Virus record (IMG/VR): IMGVR_UViG_3300006046_000007
Span: 1-55,526 of that record
DNA: 55,526 nt
DNA from: a virus
Lineage: Duplodnaviria; Caudoviricetes
Direction: 5' to 3' (one strand)
A program made the position numbers and the translations under genes. Under the pieces are notes generated by a model. The model did not search any database and was not told the DNA's origin. It saw only the letters and a program-made list of their open reading frames with translations. Each line of letters starts with the position of its first letter. Within the stretch, counting starts at the first letter, position 1. Positions 15,898 to 26,570 of the stretch are shown one piece after another.

Positions 15898-15946
15898 TGT
15901 TTCTCCTTTGGTAGGGGTCTCATATAACGCTTTGTTTTCGCCGCGA

Positions 15947-16033
15947 AAAAGAGAGGCATTGGTTATCCAATGACTTCTGCCTATGTTATCCAGGTTAACC
16001 GTATAAAACGGCACTGGAGGTAGTCACTCTCTC
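15947..16033 (-). ncRNA. Putative ~85-nt structured small RNA cassette
   Basis: Between motif 16030-16058 and a T-run abutting the next motif; no RBS-led ORF; stems GAGAG/CTCTC, GTGACT/AGTCAT, TCCAG/CTGGA, CCGT/ACGG, CATTGG/CCAATG. Confidence 0.5.
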
Positions 16034-16100
16034 ATTTAAACCCTTGTTTTAAGCGCGAAAAAAGAGAACGCCTTGTTTCCAAAGCGCTCCCTCTTTGAGA

Positions 16101-16277
16101 CTACTTATCTCGGAGTGTTCGGGCGGTGTGCTGGTTCTTGCCTCCGAAGCCGAATTCTCGAGCTTCCATCACTCGTTTATTGTAGTCTTCATTTAGAATA
16201 CGATGAACGAATGAGATGACGAAGATGAAGAATCCGAGTCCGAAGACCATGAAACCTAAGTCAAGTAACGTTTCCAT
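16101..16277 (-). CDS. Cassette gene, small membrane protein (METLLDLG...)
   Basis: Motif 16299-16327, AAGGAG RBS, TM helix. Confidence 0.75.
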   Translation of the reverse strand: METLLDLGFMVFGLGFFIFVISFVHRILNEDYNKRVMEAREFGFGGKNQHTARTLRDK

Positions 16278-16366
16278 GTGTCTCCTTCGGTAGTAGGGTC
16301 TCATATAAACCCTTGTTTAACCCGCGAAGGAGAAAACTAGAAGCCTTGTGGGCTTCTAGTCTTGAC

Positions 16367-16519
16367 TCATGTCAACATCCAGATGAGCAGGGCTGCAAAG
16401 CCGCATGCAATAACGATTGCGCACAGGAACGTGACAACGATGGCCAGACCGATCTTGTAGATCGTGTCGATGAACAGGTTGAACAGGCTCCCGAGGAATG
16501 CTAGAATATTGGCGAGCAT
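16367..16519 (-). CDS. Cassette gene, small hydrophobic protein (MLANILAF...)
   Basis: Motif 16543-16571, AAGGAG RBS, hydrophobic throughout. Confidence 0.75.
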   Translation of the reverse strand: MLANILAFLGSLFNLFIDTIYKIGLAIVVTFLCAIVIACGFAALLIWMLT

Positions 16520-16645
16520 GTTGTCTCCTTGGGTAGTGATGGTGTCATATAATGGCTTGTTTCTGACGCGAGATGGAGTGAAGGGGACCGACGGACTATG
16601 GCTGTAACTATCATCGGCCCCCTCCACGCTTTAGGGTTTAACCTA

Positions 16646-17681: not shown

Positions 17682-18503
17682 TCAGGAGTTAGGGTTGATT
17701 ACCCCATTATCGATAGCCCACACGTAGTCCTTGTAGTGGACGTTTATCACCTGGCTCTTCACCGTCCAACCCGGGAAGTCACCAGTGTACCTAAGCTTCT
17801 TGCGGCTCGGATTGATTGGTTTGGCAACTGAGTTTCCAGTCGAACCACGCACACAAGGCACATGGAACGGATCGGGATTGATCGTCGTGTTGTCATCCCA
17901 CATGTTTCCATTGACTAGGAAGTGGTCAAAGCCGCCAATGCCGACTTGACCGCATCGGAACCGTTGAAGATGGCCAGTTGCATCATTCTGATCAGATGTG
18001 AACCGGAAGTCGAGCCAACGAGGATCATACCAAGTGTGCCGAGTAGTAGAGCTGATCTGACGCCAGCAGTACTTATAGACGATTTCTGTTCGCGTCCTGA
18101 CCTTCACATAGTCAACAGTGATGACTGGACCAAGGATCCGCAATCCGTCAGGGACGAGCCCGTAATCGATTGCGACCTCACCCTCCCACTTGCAGTTGGT
18201 GGCAAGCTTAGTGATGTCCCACGGGTCGGTGTCGTCAGAGGTAATGGCCGCAACTGTGTCATCACCAGGGTAAAGACCTGCCTGAGCTGCGGTCGGCGCG
18301 TCTTCGAGGATAGTTGAAGTCCAAGGCCCGCCTGGTACCTGTGTCTGATCTGACTGGTAAGGATCACCAGCAGGCGTCAGTGGCAAGAAGCAGAAATCAT
18401 CGATGTCTGGGGGACAATCTGTATCTGCATTGGCCGATGGTGCCGACAGCATAGGCAAAGCAACTGCAATAGCCGCTGCGGCAATTATGGTTCTGATATT
18501 CAT
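17682..18503 (-). CDS. Secreted hypothetical protein
   Basis: Signal peptide MNIRTIIAAAAIAVALPMLSAPSANA; several Cys. Confidence 0.65.
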   Translation of the reverse strand: MNIRTIIAAAAIAVALPMLSAPSANADTDCPPDIDDFCFLPLTPAGDPYQSDQTQVPGGPWTSTILEDAPTAAQAGLYPGDDTVAAITSDDTDPWDITKLATNCKWEGEVAIDYGLVPDGLRILGPVITVDYVKVRTRTEIVYKYCWRQISSTTRHTWYDPRWLDFRFTSDQNDATGHLQRFRCGQVGIGGFDHFLVNGNMWDDNTTINPDPFHVPCVRGSTGNSVAKPINPSRKKLRYTGDFPGWTVKSQVINVHYKDYVWAIDNGVINPNS

Positions 18504-18896
18504 TTTACTCCTAGATAGATAAGATAGAGACCTGCAAGCACCAGTGCCCACATGCCAATGTAGATGATGGCAATGACGACAACGTTCTTAACGGTTGTCA
18601 ACCTAACCATTATGCCACCCCATTCAGAATTTGATATGCCTTGAAAACCAGTCGAGAAGCCATTTCAACCATCGAGACTCTACTCCCATAACCCCTCATC
18701 CGAGAAGAGCTATCATGTACTGAAGCCAGGTGCTGTGGTCTTCAGTAACGTGGTTTTGACTCGGATAATGACTGTGCCTTTCGGGCCGGCATAGTGTGCA
18801 ATTGGGACTAATGGGTCCTGGTTTAAGGTCTCTAGACCTATCGGCCCTATCGCAGATATCAGACATGTGTTTGATCCTCCTTTAGAGATGGGTAGA

Positions 18897-18929
18897 GGGC
18901 AGTTTTTTAAAGCAGGCATGCCCAGGCCT
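18897..18929 (-). ncRNA. Small H-type pseudoknot, copy A
   Basis: AGGC-CUGGGCAU-GCCU-GCUUUAAAAAAC-UGCCC; S1 AGGC/GCCU, S2 GGGCA/UGCCC. Confidence 0.65.
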
Positions 18930-19155
18930 CCACGGTGTCCCCGCTGTTTAATGTTACGGTAGGCTAGGAAGAATTCCTTGCAGGGAGCGCTTCCCGCTTC
19001 GGTCGGCTGCAACCGCCTTATCAAAGCTGACCTACCGGCGTTTTTTAACTACCTAACAATCCGCTGTACGTCGCTTCCTCCACCACGCGAACCTATGGCT
19101 CAGATGGTTTCACCAGTCGCTACGGAATGCCGTTCGGTCTACACCTGACCGCTCA
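18897..19155 (-). ncRNA. Structured RNA unit A (pistol-1 3' product)
   Basis: From the predicted cleavage site to pseudoknot A; stems CGGUAGG/CCUACCG and UUGCAG/CUGCAA. Confidence 0.5.
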
Positions 19156-19285
19156 CCCATTGGACGCCGGAAATGAGATCCCGTTCCGGTCTTTTACATC
19201 TGAGCTTCAGGAGAAGGAGATAACCCGCAGCTAGAGTCCAATGACGCACTAGGCCTAAGAGCTATTTATACTCGCCTAGTCGAGT
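19151..19285 (-). ncRNA. Pistol self-cleaving ribozyme 1
   Basis: ACUCG-ACUAGG-CGAGU-AUAAAUAG-CUC-UUAGG-CCUAGU-GCG-UCAUUGGAC[insert]GUCCAAUGG-GU-GAGC: P1, 6-bp pseudoknot, UAAAUAG, P2, GCG, P3 and GU site all present. Confidence 0.9.
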
Positions 19286-19686
19286 TACTCGTCTCTGCCG
19301 AAGGCCGAGTCGCGAGCCTTACGGAGGAGACGGATGGTTCGGTTGATGGCGCTCCGGTTGAACCAGGTCCAAAGACCATCAACGCCGGCCGTTGAGCCGG
19401 TGACTGCGTCCAAGCAGGCACGACCAAGTTTGTTCATGTACTCTGCTGCTGCGTCATCATCAACAGAGTCCTCAGGAACAAAGCCGAAGTCTTCTCGAAG
19501 TAGCTTGAAAAGGATTCTCCCGATCTCAGTCTGAGTAGTAGTCCCACCATAGACCTGATCGATGAAATGCAGTGTGGGTTGGTCGATACGAGATTCAAGA
19601 CCAACTCCAACAGAAGCCAGACCAGGATTCCACTGGACCAAGAGGTCGTAGGAGGCCTGATCTTCTGGGGTGATTCTTTCTTTCAT
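19285..19686 (-). CDS. Hypothetical protein
   Basis: 133 aa, AAAGG RBS; its stop codon abuts pistol 1. Confidence 0.75.
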   Translation of the reverse strand: MKERITPEDQASYDLLVQWNPGLASVGVGLESRIDQPTLHFIDQVYGGTTTQTEIGRILFKLLREDFGFVPEDSVDDDAAAEYMNKLGRACLDAVTGSTAGVDGLWTWFNRSAINRTIRLLRKARDSAFGRDE

Positions 19687-19850
19687 GGTGTTACCTTTCT
19701 TTTCGTTGGCTCCCGCTTATCGGGAGTAGATTGTCCTTGTTGTAGCCAGGCCCAGGACCTTCCCACAGGTTTAACATTTATCACCTGCGACCATGCGAGT
19801 ATTAGCGTCTCAAATGCTTCGACATTCTCGGGTTCATGATCGGCGATGTA

Positions 19851-20114
19851 TTATGAGAGATTTTGTCCCACGATCTGGTCGAACTGCCAGTTCGTAAGAA
19901 ACTTCTGGATCTCGGGGTCCAGCATGAGCTCTGGTCGATCGCGCTCCACGACATCAGTCATAAGACGACCGAACTCGATGAGTTGCAAGTTGCTCTCAAC
20001 CAATATCCGATTAGCCTTACGAAGCTTTGAAGTGATCTGCCACCAACCAATTTGGTTAGCGAGAAAGGCGATCTTAATTAGGGCGATTCGTGTTGCCGGG
20101 TCCATCTTCTTCAT
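19851..20114 (-). CDS. Hypothetical protein
   Basis: 87 aa ORF with AAGGAG RBS. Confidence 0.65.
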   Translation of the reverse strand: MKKMDPATRIALIKIAFLANQIGWWQITSKLRKANRILVESNLQLIEFGRLMTDVVERDRPELMLDPEIQKFLTNWQFDQIVGQNLS

Positions 20115-20152
20115 CGATAACTCCTTAGATAGGGGATGATGGGATGTGTTTG

Positions 20153-20305
20153 CTAACGATTGAGGACCACCAGAAAGAAGTATAGGGCTAGGAAGAACAG
20201 CCCGAAAGCAAGGAAGTCAATCTTCTTCTTTGCGAATTCGAAAATGAACCCTAGCGCAAACGCGAACACGGAAAGGAGCAAAATGATGAAGTAGAACGTA
20301 TGCAT
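20153..20305 (-). CDS. Small two-TM membrane protein (MHTFYFIILL...)
   Basis: 50 aa, AGGAGG RBS, two hydrophobic helices. Confidence 0.7.
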   Translation of the reverse strand: MHTFYFIILLLSVFAFALGFIFEFAKKKIDFLAFGLFFLALYFFLVVLNR

Positions 20306-20487
20306 GATGCCTCCTATGTTTGAATGGAGAGGAGGACAAGACCCACGAAAATCCCATCCCCCTCTCCTACTGTAGGTAGCGTTTTCAATTGACTTTAATC
20401 ACTTCGACTCATCGCACTTCGATCCGGCCAAAGGTGTTGCCCAAACCTCACGATTTCACCAATGAACTACGCTACAGTGACTTGAGG

Positions 20488-20514
20488 GGGCCTTTTTGCC
20501 GCATGCCCAGGCGG
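20488..20514 (-). ncRNA. Small H-type pseudoknot, copy B
   Basis: CCGC-CUGGGCAU-GCGG-CAAAAAG-GCCC. Confidence 0.65.
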
Positions 20515-20683
20515 GATCTTTAATCGGTAAGGTGCCCGGGTCTCCGCCCAGTGGTCTGCAACCTTTCTGCTTCGTCACCCTTGCAGAGGGTGCTTATTGA
20601 CGCAAGAACACGCCTTTTATGTACCTTACCTACGGCTAAGGGAGTGACTGGTTAGCAACGCCAATTCACTTGCCGATTTCCCA
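20488..20683 (-). ncRNA. Structured RNA unit B (pistol-2 3' product)
   Basis: Stems GGUAAGGU/ACCUUACC and UCUGCAA/UUGCAGA; ends in pseudoknot B. Confidence 0.5.
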
Positions 20684-20814
20684 CGACGCGGCTGGTAGTT
20701 GTCCATGTCGGTGAAAACACCTGTCGACTACCAATTACTTCCAAGCTCAAGGCCTGTAACTTGGAACCGCGCCCGCTCTGAGCCTAAGGTCTATTTAACC
20801 TCGCTCAGACGAGG
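20680..20814 (-). ncRNA. Pistol self-cleaving ribozyme 2
   Basis: CCUCG-UCUGAG-CGAGG-UUAAAUAG-ACC-UUAGG-CUCAGA-GCG-GGCGCGGUU[insert]AGCCGCGUC-GU-GGG; core intact, P2 weak (two C-G pairs plus A.G). Confidence 0.8.
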
Positions 20815-20853
20815 GAGTAGTTTAGTGTGGATCGAGGTCATGCTCAGGACCCC
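20815..20853 (-). ncRNA. Small H-type pseudoknot, copy C
   Basis: GGGGUC-CUGAGCAU-GACCUC...UAAAC-UACUC; abuts pistol 2. Confidence 0.55.
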
Positions 20854-20959
20854 GCAATGAGGCATTCAGTTGAACATCTATAGTGGGCGTTACCCACCAT
20901 CCGTCATCGAACTCACCTCCATCTAAATATGCACGCTCTTTCGAGCCTGACTATAGTAG

Positions 20960-21039
20960 CTCGCACGACGGGATTCGAACCCGCATACGCCGCCCTGGAT
21001 GTCCAGGCCCGAACGCTTTACCAATTAAGTTACATGCGA
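20960..21039 (-). tRNA. tRNA-like element with extended, non-canonical anticodon arm
   Basis: Acceptor UCGCAUG/CGUGCGA, D arm ACUU-AAUUGGUA-AAGC, T arm GCGGG-UUCGAAU-CCCGU; anticodon/variable region 29 nt instead of ~22, with CCUGG-ACAU-CCAGG hairpin; 3' end G-CUA, not CCA. Confidence 0.7.
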
Positions 21040-21086
21040 TGCCTCCCTAACCGTCACACTCGGGGGAACGCAGACGGCTAGAAACT

Positions 21087-21188
21087 CTAGTACCTTCGCT
21101 TCTTTGACGGATTCGTGTTGAAGACCCACGAATAGATCAAGCAGAAGAGAAGAATGGCGAAGACCACACCAATAACAAGTCGGACCAT
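21087..21188 (-). CDS. Small membrane peptide (MVRLVIGVVF...)
   Basis: 33 aa, AAGGAG RBS, one TM helix. Confidence 0.55.
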   Translation of the reverse strand: MVRLVIGVVFAILLFCLIYSWVFNTNPSKKRRY

Positions 21189-21595
21189 AATAACTCCTTT
21201 TATGTGATAGTTAGATCTTGACTACGTTGCGAAACAAAGAACTCTCATCGTGTGAGGTGAAGACGTACATCTCGAAAAAGACCATTGGTACGAAGAACTG
21301 GCAGTCCAAAGGCGAGCCCTCGTCACGTAGGAACCAGCCTTCTTCGTGCTCCTCAAGCCACTGTAAGGCCATCTCTAAGTCAAAATCTCGTCCTGCCTCG
21401 CTCCGAATCACACCTCGAAGATTCTCTGGTGTAATCTTGATTGCGTAAGCTTGCACAGGACGGCCTCTCACTTAGATGTGATCCACTGAATAAGCTCGAC
21501 AAACCCCCACCCGAACAAGAAAACGATTGCTAGAATGATGAAAACAATCACCCAAACAACGCCCCAGGCGAACTGATTGGTCTTTTTCTCATCCA

Positions 21596-22072
21596 TCAGA
21601 TCTCCTCGTAGTCAGCATACTTGGCCGCGAAACGGGATTCCTTGACCTTGGCATAGAGTTCTTTGACGTATGCCGTGATCCCAGAGTTCTGTCCATTCAC
21701 CCAACGAGATGGAGTGATGATAACATCGAGTTGCTCAAGAGTGTCTCGACGAATATCAGCTAGGTCACGTTCTGTTGCACGAAGCTTTCGCTCTCCCTTA
21801 AGAAGGTAGATCTTAGGCGGTTCGAACTTGTAAGAGATCTTGATCTTTAGCAGGTGCTCGTCAGGATCGCCTTCCTCATACCCAGGCATATCTCGTACTG
21901 CCCAGCCATCAGCGCGCATCTTGTCTGCAATCTCCTCAGATAGCATGGCAGTGAAGTTATGAGCACCTTCTGCGTTGAACGTGTCTTCCCGTCCATCGAA
22001 ATGCGAGAATGCCCACTTGACCTTGACGTCTTCAAGCTCGACATCGTTGACCCAATTACGATCTTCAGGCAT
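21596..22072 (-). CDS. Putative single-stranded DNA-binding protein
   Basis: F-x-G-RE..FN.EG..NF and ITAYVKELY patterns, acidic C-tail, located in the replication region. Confidence 0.6.
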   Translation of the reverse strand: MPEDRNWVNDVELEDVKVKWAFSHFDGREDTFNAEGAHNFTAMLSEEIADKMRADGWAVRDMPGYEEGDPDEHLLKIKISYKFEPPKIYLLKGERKLRATERDLADIRRDTLEQLDVIITPSRWVNGQNSGITAYVKELYAKVKESRFAAKYADYEEI

Positions 22073-26327: not shown

Positions 26328-26392
26328 AATGTCTCCTCTTAGAGAAAGAAAAGAAGAGTTGTCCGGGGAGGACTGGATCACTTATGGATCCC

Positions 26393-26421
26393 TCTCATTT
26401 AGTGCGTTGTTTTTACCGCGA
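26393..26421 (-). promoter_or_regulatory. Phage promoter-like motif copy
   Basis: TCGCG-GTAA-AAACAA-CGCACTAA-ATGAGA. Confidence 0.75.
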
Positions 26422-26570
26422 ATATAGGCGAGCCTTTCCTCTGCTCGCATGTCGCACCCTGACAGACACTTGTGCGATTCCCCTGCTTGAGATGGGACCC
26501 CGCGTCTTCCTGAGCCATGTACTCAGGCTGCGTTACCCACTTGACCGTCGCTTTGGACGGACCATCAAGT

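Follow-up and report, generated by a model that had tools for sequence, protein, structure and literature searches.

What does a phage make of a stretch of its genome that holds two self-cleaving ribozymes, a tRNA-like element and three pseudoknots, and do these parts belong together? The stretch in question (18897-21082, minus strand) lies in IMG/VR record IMGVR_UViG_3300006046_000007, the whole of which (55,526 bases; completeness estimate 93%) was analysed and is called the window; its large open reading frames (ORFs) are all on the minus strand, and the DNA runs containing its sequence are labelled as soil metagenomes. An initial annotation, made from the letters alone, had read the stretch as three repeats of one unit, formed by a processing element, a structured RNA and a 3' pseudoknot, and had proposed that one long transcript is cut there into discrete RNAs. 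The answer favoured here, to which we give a probability of roughly 0.5, is that, inside one long transcript, pistol ribozymes release small structured RNAs, and that the 3' side of these RNAs is delimited by a pseudoknot that serves phages as a general boundary. The released RNAs in question, RNA A and RNA B, are by comparative analysis members of one conserved, uncatalogued family of folded RNAs. The pseudoknots are called PK-A, PK-B and PK-C, or simply knots, and all coordinates are given in Table 1.

Pistol ribozymes and the RNA domain behind them

Both pistols recognised in the initial annotation are confirmed by an Rfam scan at gathering thresholds, which returned three hits in the region, all on the minus strand: two pistols, each above the RF02679 gathering score of 34.5, and one tRNA. 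A permissive scan of 18400-21400 added nothing credible. All the parts of the class, as given in the accessible portion of its description (PMC4604425), are present, namely P1, a 6-bp pseudoknot, in which the P1 loop pairs with the P2-P3 junction (ACUAGG/CCUAGU and UCUGAG/CUCAGA), an AAA linker, P2, P3 and the G-U site. The two ribozymes differ from that class in a structured P3 insert of 88-89 nt and in being coupled to one particular RNA downstream, a task that the literature searched does not ascribe to pistols. The Rfam 3' borders of both are too short: a search for the best joint closure by P3, G-U and P2 finds a 9-bp P3 in each, enclosing the 88-89 nt and followed by G|U, so that the 135-nt forms and cut sites predicted earlier are a better annotation than that of Rfam. 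P2 pairs at four of four positions in pistol 1 and at two of four in pistol 2. An acceptable closure was found in 63 of 91 pistols of this sub-pattern, with P3 domains most commonly of 15-40 nt (36/63) and a tail to 260 nt. The three-way P3 insert of pistol 1 recurs in five metagenome contigs (L249, L251, L255, L256 and L277), which have in common the junction sequence GGACUCU.GCU ... AGCUCAGAURUAAAAGACC ... and a closing helix with compensatory changes. In the first hairpin of this insert (window 19240-19165, minus strand) a C/U-rich run is kept in every relative and the remaining sequence is rewritten; these runs, which are anti-Shine-Dalgarno-like, read CUCCUUCC, UUUUUCCCCC, GCUCCCUCU, ACCCCC and GCUCCUCC. 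For other members of the class, Mg-dependent self-cleavage was shown to leave a 2',3'-cyclic phosphate and a 5'-OH (PMC4604425, accessible portion).

The homology of the two RNAs behind these ribozymes became detectable only after metagenome contigs had been added. A nucleotide search against 50,697 phage records returned two short matches only, both to pistol cores (47 nt at 95.7% in Cellulosimicrobium phage DS1 and 43 nt at 90.7% in Gordonia phages), and no relatives came from a search at the protein level with two flanking proteins. A first MAFFT alignment of RNA A, RNA B and DS1, and a blastn comparison of six units, gave only the similarities of pistol and knot. A metagenome scan with the pistol-1 core yielded 36 loci; blastn of the region against every locus fetched then matched contig L249 to pistol 1 and part of RNA A. 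By all-against-all comparison of the sequences behind pistols, RNA A aligns with L249 over 90 nt (72%, E 5e-11) and with L277 in two blocks, and RNA B aligns with L256 over 74 nt (69%, E 8.5e-7). The B-type RNAs (RNA B, L256 and L255) share their 5' domain too, from the cut site onward.

The part common to all is a junction domain of 77-118 nt, parsed in eight members (RNA A, RNA B, L249, L255, L256, L277, L153 and L203). It is built of a closing stem Pa, an optional Pb, the strand RAUAAG, Pc with a loop of 5-6 nt, CGAAG, Pe, an optional Pd and the 3' strand of Pa. Pa has 6-8 bp and is different in every member, with inner pairs ..GGU/ACC..; it carries three double compensatory changes between RNA B and L256, and four between RNA A and L249. 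The Pe loop is complementary to the Pc loop in six different loop pairs over the eight members, and the Pc and Pe stems also vary. The loop pairs are CUGCA(A)/UUGCAG (RNA B, L256), CGGCAA/UUGCCG (L255), CGGUAA/UUACCG (L153), UUACCG/CGGUAA (L203), UUGCAG/CUGCAA (RNA A, L249) and, by eye, UUGCGG/CCGCAA (L277). A strict descriptor, which demanded RAUAAG and CGAAR, three or more base pairs in each of Pc and Pe, seven in Pa and six Watson-Crick pairs between the loops within 22 nt, gave seven hits in 2.4 Mb (both strands), with RNA A and RNA B among them, against none in five full shuffles; L277 fails it because of its CAAAG and large Pc loop. A loose descriptor was discarded (11 real against 16 shuffled hits). 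Since RNAalifold on a MAFFT alignment of five members recovered only Pc, a script was used to parse the helices.

In all eight members a pistol stands some 190-260 nt upstream of the domain; it is confirmed by Rfam for the window, L249, L255, L256, L277 and L203 and by pattern only for L153. What most self-cleaving ribozymes of bacteria and phages do is unknown, according to the part of a review that could be consulted (PMC6765202); the coupling of a pistol to one conserved folded RNA in eight members suggests a concrete role, the making of the 5' end of a small RNA. No Rfam family covers the domain, and neither it nor the knot was found in Rfam 15 or in the accessible portions of PMC10879173, PMC10690425, 10.64898/2026.09.22.753630, PMC6765202, PMC5737381 and PMC4604425; the supplementary lists of PMC10690425 (>10,000 candidate viral RNAs), PMC5737381 and Weinberg 2015 may hold them. 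A pistol, an RNA and a knot are present in DS1, L182 and L237, where the junction domain was not found. A hammerhead core was considered for RAUAAG...CGAAG and rejected, positions 4, 5 and 8 being lost in most members.

The threefold unit of the initial annotation survives in two copies. Units A and B are two paralogous modules of a recurrent kind (pistol, folded RNA, knot), and the third (tRNA-like element, RNA C and PK-C) is unrelated to them and shares the architecture only. The proposal of structured non-coding RNAs holds for RNA A and RNA B, conserved and always behind a pistol; for RNA C no homologue was detected in 2.37 Mb of fetched loci. The units are also kept in related phages, as had been asked of them: a single-strand-annealing protein (PF24083) is encoded upstream of the unit in the window and in L255, L277, L249 and L256. 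These four contigs are from relatives that carry the unit in a syntenic position. The contexts of L203 and L153 are unrelated. In L203, a Tad3-like gene (Thoeris inhibitor, PF25185, E 1e-33; L203:1806-2339, minus strand) is located about 1.5 kb upstream of the pistol-RNA-terminator unit, which may sit among anti-defence genes. Two other contig pairs share different conserved RNA blocks behind pistols (L159/L276, 93 nt, 72%; L175/L237, 84 nt, 69%), those of L159 and L276 ending in a knot-like ACCUUGGNAGUGGUGCAAG...AUAAACU variant, and several RNA families may be served by pistols.

The pseudoknot family

The three pseudoknots seen earlier all belong to one covarying family of H-type pseudoknots with the consensus nnCCUGGGCAYGn'n'...AAAC-UGCCC (CCUGGGCA-type), of which PK-A is a canonical member and PK-B and PK-C are variants. 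The motif CCUGRGCAUG occurs exactly three times in the window, always on the minus strand and within 2 kb, at 20848, 20511 and 18926. Stem 1 pairs in all three copies (layout nnC-CU-(5 nt)-Y-Gn'n'); stem 2, in which a 5-nt strand behind the A-rich loop 3 (ending in AAAC) pairs with the loop of stem 1, is complete in PK-A and lacks one of five pairs in PK-C (one C.A) and in PK-B. The covariation test used matches to the core only, with pairing not demanded and the expectation taken from permuted partners; as the loci were fetched via a canonical copy, phages that have one are over-represented in the sample. Among 319 such matches stem 2 pairs 5/5 in 159, and in 156 of these both variable stem-1 positions pair (43.8 expected), in at least nine different combinations. 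Where stem 1 is paired and stem 2 is other than GGGCA, 42 of 76 matches pair fully (11.8 expected), for example as GAGCA/UGCUC, GAGUA/UACUC, GGACA/UGUCC, GGCCA/UGGCC or AAGCA/UGCUU. Under relaxed conditions the scan returned 158 hits, compared with six in shuffled sequence. By these counts the knot is a large and real family in which both stems covary; G-U pairs occur only in the sense shown, which fits a knot that is RNA of the coding strand.

The family is widely spread. A pattern made from PK-A and the DS1 copy found at least 120 loci in viral contigs, and the exact 24-nt form was found at no fewer than 120 loci in one-genome-per-species contigs. The latter (L311-L390) are labelled as many bacterial phyla, candidate phyla radiation (CPR) bacteria and a few archaeal metagenome-assembled genomes, and some could be prophages or mis-binned phage contigs; the complete chromosomes among them are of Nonomuraea and Dehalococcoidia. 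Near-identical, unannotated knots are present in Moorella MTATph1, Corynebacterium phi673 and phi674, Synechococcus S-EIVl, Nostoc NMeng1, Lactobacillus phiEF-1.1 and a 6-kb 'Sigmofec virus' record. The PK-B subclass, ending in AAAAGGCCCC, has 32 unique viral hits, with stem 1 paired in 26, and several of the others resemble unrelated terminators. Searches by pattern for near copies of PK-A, of RNA A and of RNA B returned none, and Rfam offered no model for the knot, either in the region or around two knots in L083 (E up to 10). Mapping by hand excluded HDV (hepatitis delta virus)/theta, twister, hammerhead, preQ1-I, ZTP and RNase P-substrate (turnip yellow mosaic virus-like) folds, by helix order or by the covariation of the last two C's. 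One 13.8-kb record (L050, IMGVR_UViG_3300027608_000043) holds at least nine knots in 13 kb, with differing stem-2 sequences, each about 25 nt before an ATG without obvious Shine-Dalgarno (SD) sequence.

Strain variants and RNA libraries bear on the copy in the window. On a divergent-strain contig, 13 changes fall in ORF 18696-18866 at spacings that are multiples of three, and one falls in the 75 nt spanning SD, spacer and PK-A, which itself is unchanged; the comparison of one change in 75 nt with 13 period-three changes in an adjacent ORF of 171 nt points to selection on PK-A and its flanks. This 56-aa ORF on the minus strand behind PK-A is a real gene under purifying selection, and has no Pfam or PHROG family. 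On another strain contig, RNA A shows five changes and one insertion in 139 nt (about 4%), of which three changes (19108, 19107 and 19104) preserve the pairing of a predicted helix (19108-19104/19086-19082). Beyond the stop at 19286 the sequence of that strain is at once completely different, and pistol 1 is therefore not a fixed occupant of this junction. Contigs from two metatranscriptome runs, both of a single study, cover 18686-19142 (PK-A and most of RNA A), 19286-19736 and some upstream genes; they do not reach 19737-21096, which is not evidence of absence, and hold no joints, hence no sign of circular forms.

Boundary, leader or ribosome signal

The knot keeps a set distance from what lies on its 5' side. 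Among 155 knots preceded by an ORF of 40 aa or more, the interval between stop and CCU is 8 nt in 29, 9 nt in 22, 10 nt in eight and less than 8 nt in only five; the next ORF start lies anywhere between 10 and 400 nt away, with a median of 46 nt. In 15 of 169 cases the knot is followed at 3-13 nt, mostly at 3-6 nt, by the start of a tRNA gene, and a pistol starts directly after it at L075 and PK-C. A knot that stands after stop codons and before tRNAs is a general boundary mark and not specific to non-coding RNAs. None of the three knots of the window follows a real ORF, the TAA found 8 nt from PK-B closing a start-less frame of 43 codons. A stop distance of 8-9 nt less a stem 1 of 3-4 bp leaves, by our arithmetic, a spacer of 5-6 nt; from the geometry of ribosome and helicase, about 5-6 nt is the nearest placement that escapes opening by a ribosome with the stop codon in its A site. 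From these positions we take the knot to be a boundary element that belongs to the 3' side of the segment before it. The surroundings of pistols were searched for knots with a regular expression. Of 124 unique pistols, 105 of which have flanks of 600 nt or more, 10 are followed by a knot at +195 to +409, and the rest of the interval from -60 to +900 holds a single further one. Set against the 53 knots in 1.33 Mb of the same loci, the excess is by rough arithmetic several-fold. Seven of the ten were judged canonical, two (L159, L276) share a variant and one (L175) is likely a chance match; no ORF of at least 30 aa with an SD lies inside any of the ten pistol-RNA-knot units. Extended gaps without genes are frequent behind pistols of all kinds: the next ORF of 50 aa or more lies at a median distance of 209 nt from the pistol core (n=93; 36 exceed 300 nt), an overestimate where genes are small.

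Under the favoured reading, the stretch would be a processing-rich segment of one long minus-strand early transcript, in which the two pistols would cut to give the 5'-OH ends of RNA B and RNA A. Each of these RNAs would be about 200-260 nt long, with a 5' hairpin domain and a junction domain whose two hairpin loops pair, and would have as its end a compact pseudoknot of the H-type, the third loop of which is rich in A. A nearby cut, by RNase P at a tRNA, by a ribozyme or by RNase E, would leave the knot forming the new 3' end or standing only a few bases from it, where it could stop 3'-to-5' exonucleases (or a scanning RNase E) and cap the segment before it on its 3' side; in the unit that comes first and is unrelated to the others, the tRNA-like element may offer a cut by RNase P/Z. 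The RNAs would then act in trans early in infection, as stable folded RNAs or RNA-protein scaffolds; the functions suggested in the initial annotation (decoy, antitoxin mimic or scaffold) are speculative. Were the knot such a barrier, it would represent a general rule for how phages partition and stabilise long transcripts, and a compact, portable stabiliser for engineering.

The transcript that this mechanism supposes, also proposed in the initial annotation, fits what is seen. No sigma-70-like promoter was found in 18400-21700; of seven terminator-like sites, none is on the minus strand of the non-coding RNA stretches; and the phage's own repeated promoter-like box (GCG..AAAACAAG..UUAUAUGAGAC, minus strand) occurs at 15915-16577 and 26390-26427 and is absent in between. 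With neither a promoter nor a credible terminator inside the stretch, the picture fits a single long transcript that would come into the region from about 26.4 kb, and the non-coding region is probably co-transcribed. Codon-usage log-odds, trained on 18 long ORFs of the window, are positive for the three small genes of Table 1 and for 18866-18696, and negative in all three frames across 21087-20340 and 19285-18867, which are therefore taken as non-coding.

Several observations weigh against the release and capping of discrete RNAs. The P2 of pistol 2 is weak, and PK-B and PK-C have their stem-2 mismatches. RNA A and RNA B fold no better than their shuffles (z -0.08 and -0.01, from minimum free energy (MFE) against dinucleotide shuffles, the scale used throughout), and whole units A and B are uninformative (0.01 and -1.18); pistol 2 reaches -3.77. 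The strain divergence of RNA A is not below the rough synonymous rate of the neighbouring gene, and the contigs from the RNA runs, at depth 1-4, show presence in RNA libraries only. The agent that would form the 3' ends behind PK-A and PK-B is not accounted for, and PK-C would remain joined to pistol 2 after cleavage. The junction domain is present behind only 7-8 of the 124 pistols examined, L249 has the RNA and no knot, so that the knot is not obligatory, and the tight stop-codon spacing could instead mean a role in translation termination.

What follows the domain is also what a structured 5' leader would be judged by. In such an arrangement, the pistol would give an mRNA a 5'-OH end, and domain and knot would shield it from 5'-end-dependent decay and insulate the ribosome-binding site, in the manner of a natural RiboJ-type insulator. 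A knot follows the domain in RNA A, RNA B, L255 (PK-B subclass), L256, L153 and L277; behind those of PK-A, L255 and L277 an SD and ATG come within 20-45 nt, and in L249 they follow the domain directly. It is also in line with the proposal in reviews, as far as the portion consulted goes, that ribozymes split polycistronic mRNAs into parts of differing stability (PMC6765202). On the other hand, no gene is led in L203, where a 10-bp hairpin with a U-run (an intrinsic terminator) comes directly after the domain, or in L256, where the knot is followed by the promoter-like box that links this contig to the lineage of the window phage, and both cases fit discrete RNAs better than leaders. In the wider family, moreover, the knot is anchored to the upstream stop and not to the downstream start, and a further fold of 170 nt separates RNA B from the next ORF. 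Leaders are, on this balance, a rather doubtful explanation. In L153 (7400-7560, plus strand) three tandem knots stand behind one pistol-RNA unit, the third being a CCCGGGCAAG...AAAGGGCCC variant.

The sharp 8-9 nt stop spacing would also suit a knot that acts on a ribosome at the mRNA entrance, with the stop codon in the A site, and modulates termination, recycling or re-initiation on the next cistron. A spacer of 5-6 nt to stem 1 is the geometry of frameshift and readthrough pseudoknots. Luteovirid -1 frameshift pseudoknots of the beet western yellows virus type are compact and H-type, with a short loop 1, an A-rich loop 3 and a spacer of 5-6 nt from the A-site codon, and the phage knot resembles them in all these traits. 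It differs in standing after stops, before tRNAs and behind non-coding RNA, and in a near-invariant sequence across many phyla. The 15 copies placed just before tRNA genes do not suit a ribosomal target, and neither do the three copies of the window, that of DS1 and those of the pistol units, which follow non-coding RNA, one of them abutting a pistol; an effect on the ribosome is an unlikely function of the knot.

The junction domain itself could sense a ligand in the manner of a riboswitch, or be catalytic, and so exert control over its downstream neighbourhood, as its invariant RAUAAG and CGAAG strands around covarying helices and its loop-loop tertiary contact would allow; the L203 terminator, right behind the closing stem, is placed as in transcriptional riboswitches. 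It seems very improbable, given that no common class of downstream gene was seen, the flanking small ORFs having no family, that the 3' neighbour varies (knot, terminator or SD) and that a fixed upstream pistol is not a riboswitch trait. That the pistol-plus-RNA block is a selfish or neutral mosaic module of no function for the phage can hardly be credited, as compensatory changes in Pa, Pc, Pe and the kissing loops over eight members point to selection on the fold, even if pistol and RNA types do recombine (L256 joins a pistol-1-type ribozyme to a B-type RNA) and a related strain lacks pistol 1 at the 19286 junction.

Beyond the favoured reading lies a bolder form of it, in which the pistol-released RNAs would be a new class of phage small RNAs whose loops pair between molecules and not within one, giving dimers or rings, and the widespread knot would be a '3' cap' that phages universally place on segments of their transcripts. 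The loop pair UUGCAG/CUGCAA occurs in RNA A as well as in RNA B, with the two loops exchanged, which makes an A-B heterodimer possible; the bolder form as a whole is to be held as improbable.

Known systems and further features of the locus

Several known systems share parts of this layout. In the 3' maturation of MALAT1 and MEN-beta, RNase P cuts at a tRNA-like element (mascRNA) and the upstream end is capped by a triple helix. The likeness is in a tRNA or tRNA-like processing element directly behind a compact A-rich structure, here a knot 3-13 nt before tRNAs; the differences are the bacterial and phage setting, the H-type pseudoknot in place of a U-A-U triple helix, and a protection that is here presumed. 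Mitochondrial tRNA punctuation and the RNase III processing of T7 early mRNA also cut a long transcript at structured intergenic marks, with 3' structures that stabilise the pieces; the marks here include self-cleaving ribozymes and a conserved pseudoknot, and some of the 'cargo' slots hold RNA, not ORFs. In phi29, the pRNA joins hand in hand via complementary loops. The multi-helix junction with two mutually complementary loops, which could pair within or between molecules, recalls both this RNA and ROOL and GOLLD, phage-linked RNAs described as multimeric in the portion consulted (10.1101/2024.12.08.627333), and differs from them in having no sequence or Rfam similarity and in being smaller than ROOL or GOLLD; oligomerisation here is a possibility raised by the loops. 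Theta ribozymes, which are minimal HDV-like ribozymes, sit within 5 nt of phage tRNAs (PMC10879173, accessible portion) and are likewise small phage ribozymes tied to the maturation of a neighbouring stable RNA; they belong to another ribozyme class, and by our mapping the CCUGGGCA knot does not fit the HDV topology.

The tRNA-like fold of the initial annotation is borne out by both Rfam and ARAGORN. Its acceptor, D and T arms are canonical and the cloverleaf is recognisable; the anticodon arm, as read from the sequence, is a long stem with a 4-nt loop (ACAU) and not a 7-nt loop on a 5-bp stem. The Rfam alignment needs 23 nt in the anticodon region where 15 are expected, and the anticodon stem of the Ser(gga) call has two mismatches. 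The 3' end reads G-CUA, CCA not being encoded.

Table 1. Features of the region, in order of transcription (minus strand).
Feature	Position	Strand	Basis
Stable hairpin just after the stop of a 33-aa ORF, upstream of the tRNA-like element	21047..21082	-	MFE -15.6 kcal/mol, z -5.11 (150 shuffles)
tRNA-like element	20957..21039	-	Rfam tRNA 37.3 bits (gathering 29) at 21039-20960; ARAGORN tRNA-Ser(gga) 20959-21039
RNA C, non-coding hairpins	20854..20956	-	No coding signal; z -2.22
PK-C, variant of the H-type pseudoknot, abuts pistol 2	20815..20853	-	S1 GGUC/GACC; S2 GAGCA/UACUC, 4/5 pairs
Pistol ribozyme 2, 89-nt P3 domain	20680..20814	-	Rfam RF02679 46.9 bits at 20814-20765; predicted cut G20684|U20683
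RNA B 5' domain: stem enclosing a hairpin, conserved CCCUU, common to L256 and L255	20631..20683	-	Comparison by eye
RNA B junction domain: Pa GGUAAGGU/ACCUUACC, Pb, AAUAAG, Pc loop CUGCA, CGAAG, Pe loop UGCAG, Pd	20526..20630	-	Script parse, strict descriptor
PK-B, subclass ...AAAAAGGCCCC	20488..20514	-	TAA 8 nt upstream of CCU; same subclass behind homologous RNA in L255
Multibranch RNA, strongly folded, and long hairpin before a 50-aa ORF	20320..20487	-	z -4.10
Three small protein genes between units B and A	20305-20153, 20114-19851, 19686-19285	-	One coding-positive frame each
Pistol ribozyme 1, begins at upstream stop codon, 88-nt three-way P3 domain	19151..19285	-	Rfam 45.0 bits at 19285-19219; predicted cut G19156|U19155
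RNA A 5' part: conserved hairpin GGUC-AGGUGUA-GACC, then variable region	19038..19155	-	Alignments; variable region deleted in L249
RNA A junction domain: Pa CGGUAGGU/GCCUACCG, GAUAAG, Pc loop UUGCAG, CGAAG, Pe loop with CUGCAA	18957..19037	-	Script parse, strict descriptor
PK-A, canonical, about 30 nt before SD and ATG of ORF 18866-18696	18897..18929	-	Stem 2 5/5

The remaining features are minor. None of the three small proteins encoded between units B and A has a Pfam family, and only that of 19686-19285 has a PHROG (function unassigned). No long complementarity was found between the RNAs of the region and the rest of the genome, and the multibranch fold behind PK-B is absent from the relatives L255 and L256 and is not conserved. 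A gap of 160 nt (19700-19850, minus strand) before ORF 19686 is free of genes, folds in an ordinary manner (z -1.28) and holds GGUCCUGGGCCUGGC, a partial look-alike of the 5' half of the knot. Directly 5' of the SD of the 50-aa membrane-like ORF stands a very stable 19-bp hairpin (20320-20380, minus strand; GGAGAGGGGGAUGGGAUU...) with no U-run, which may be an RNase III site or a 5' stabiliser.

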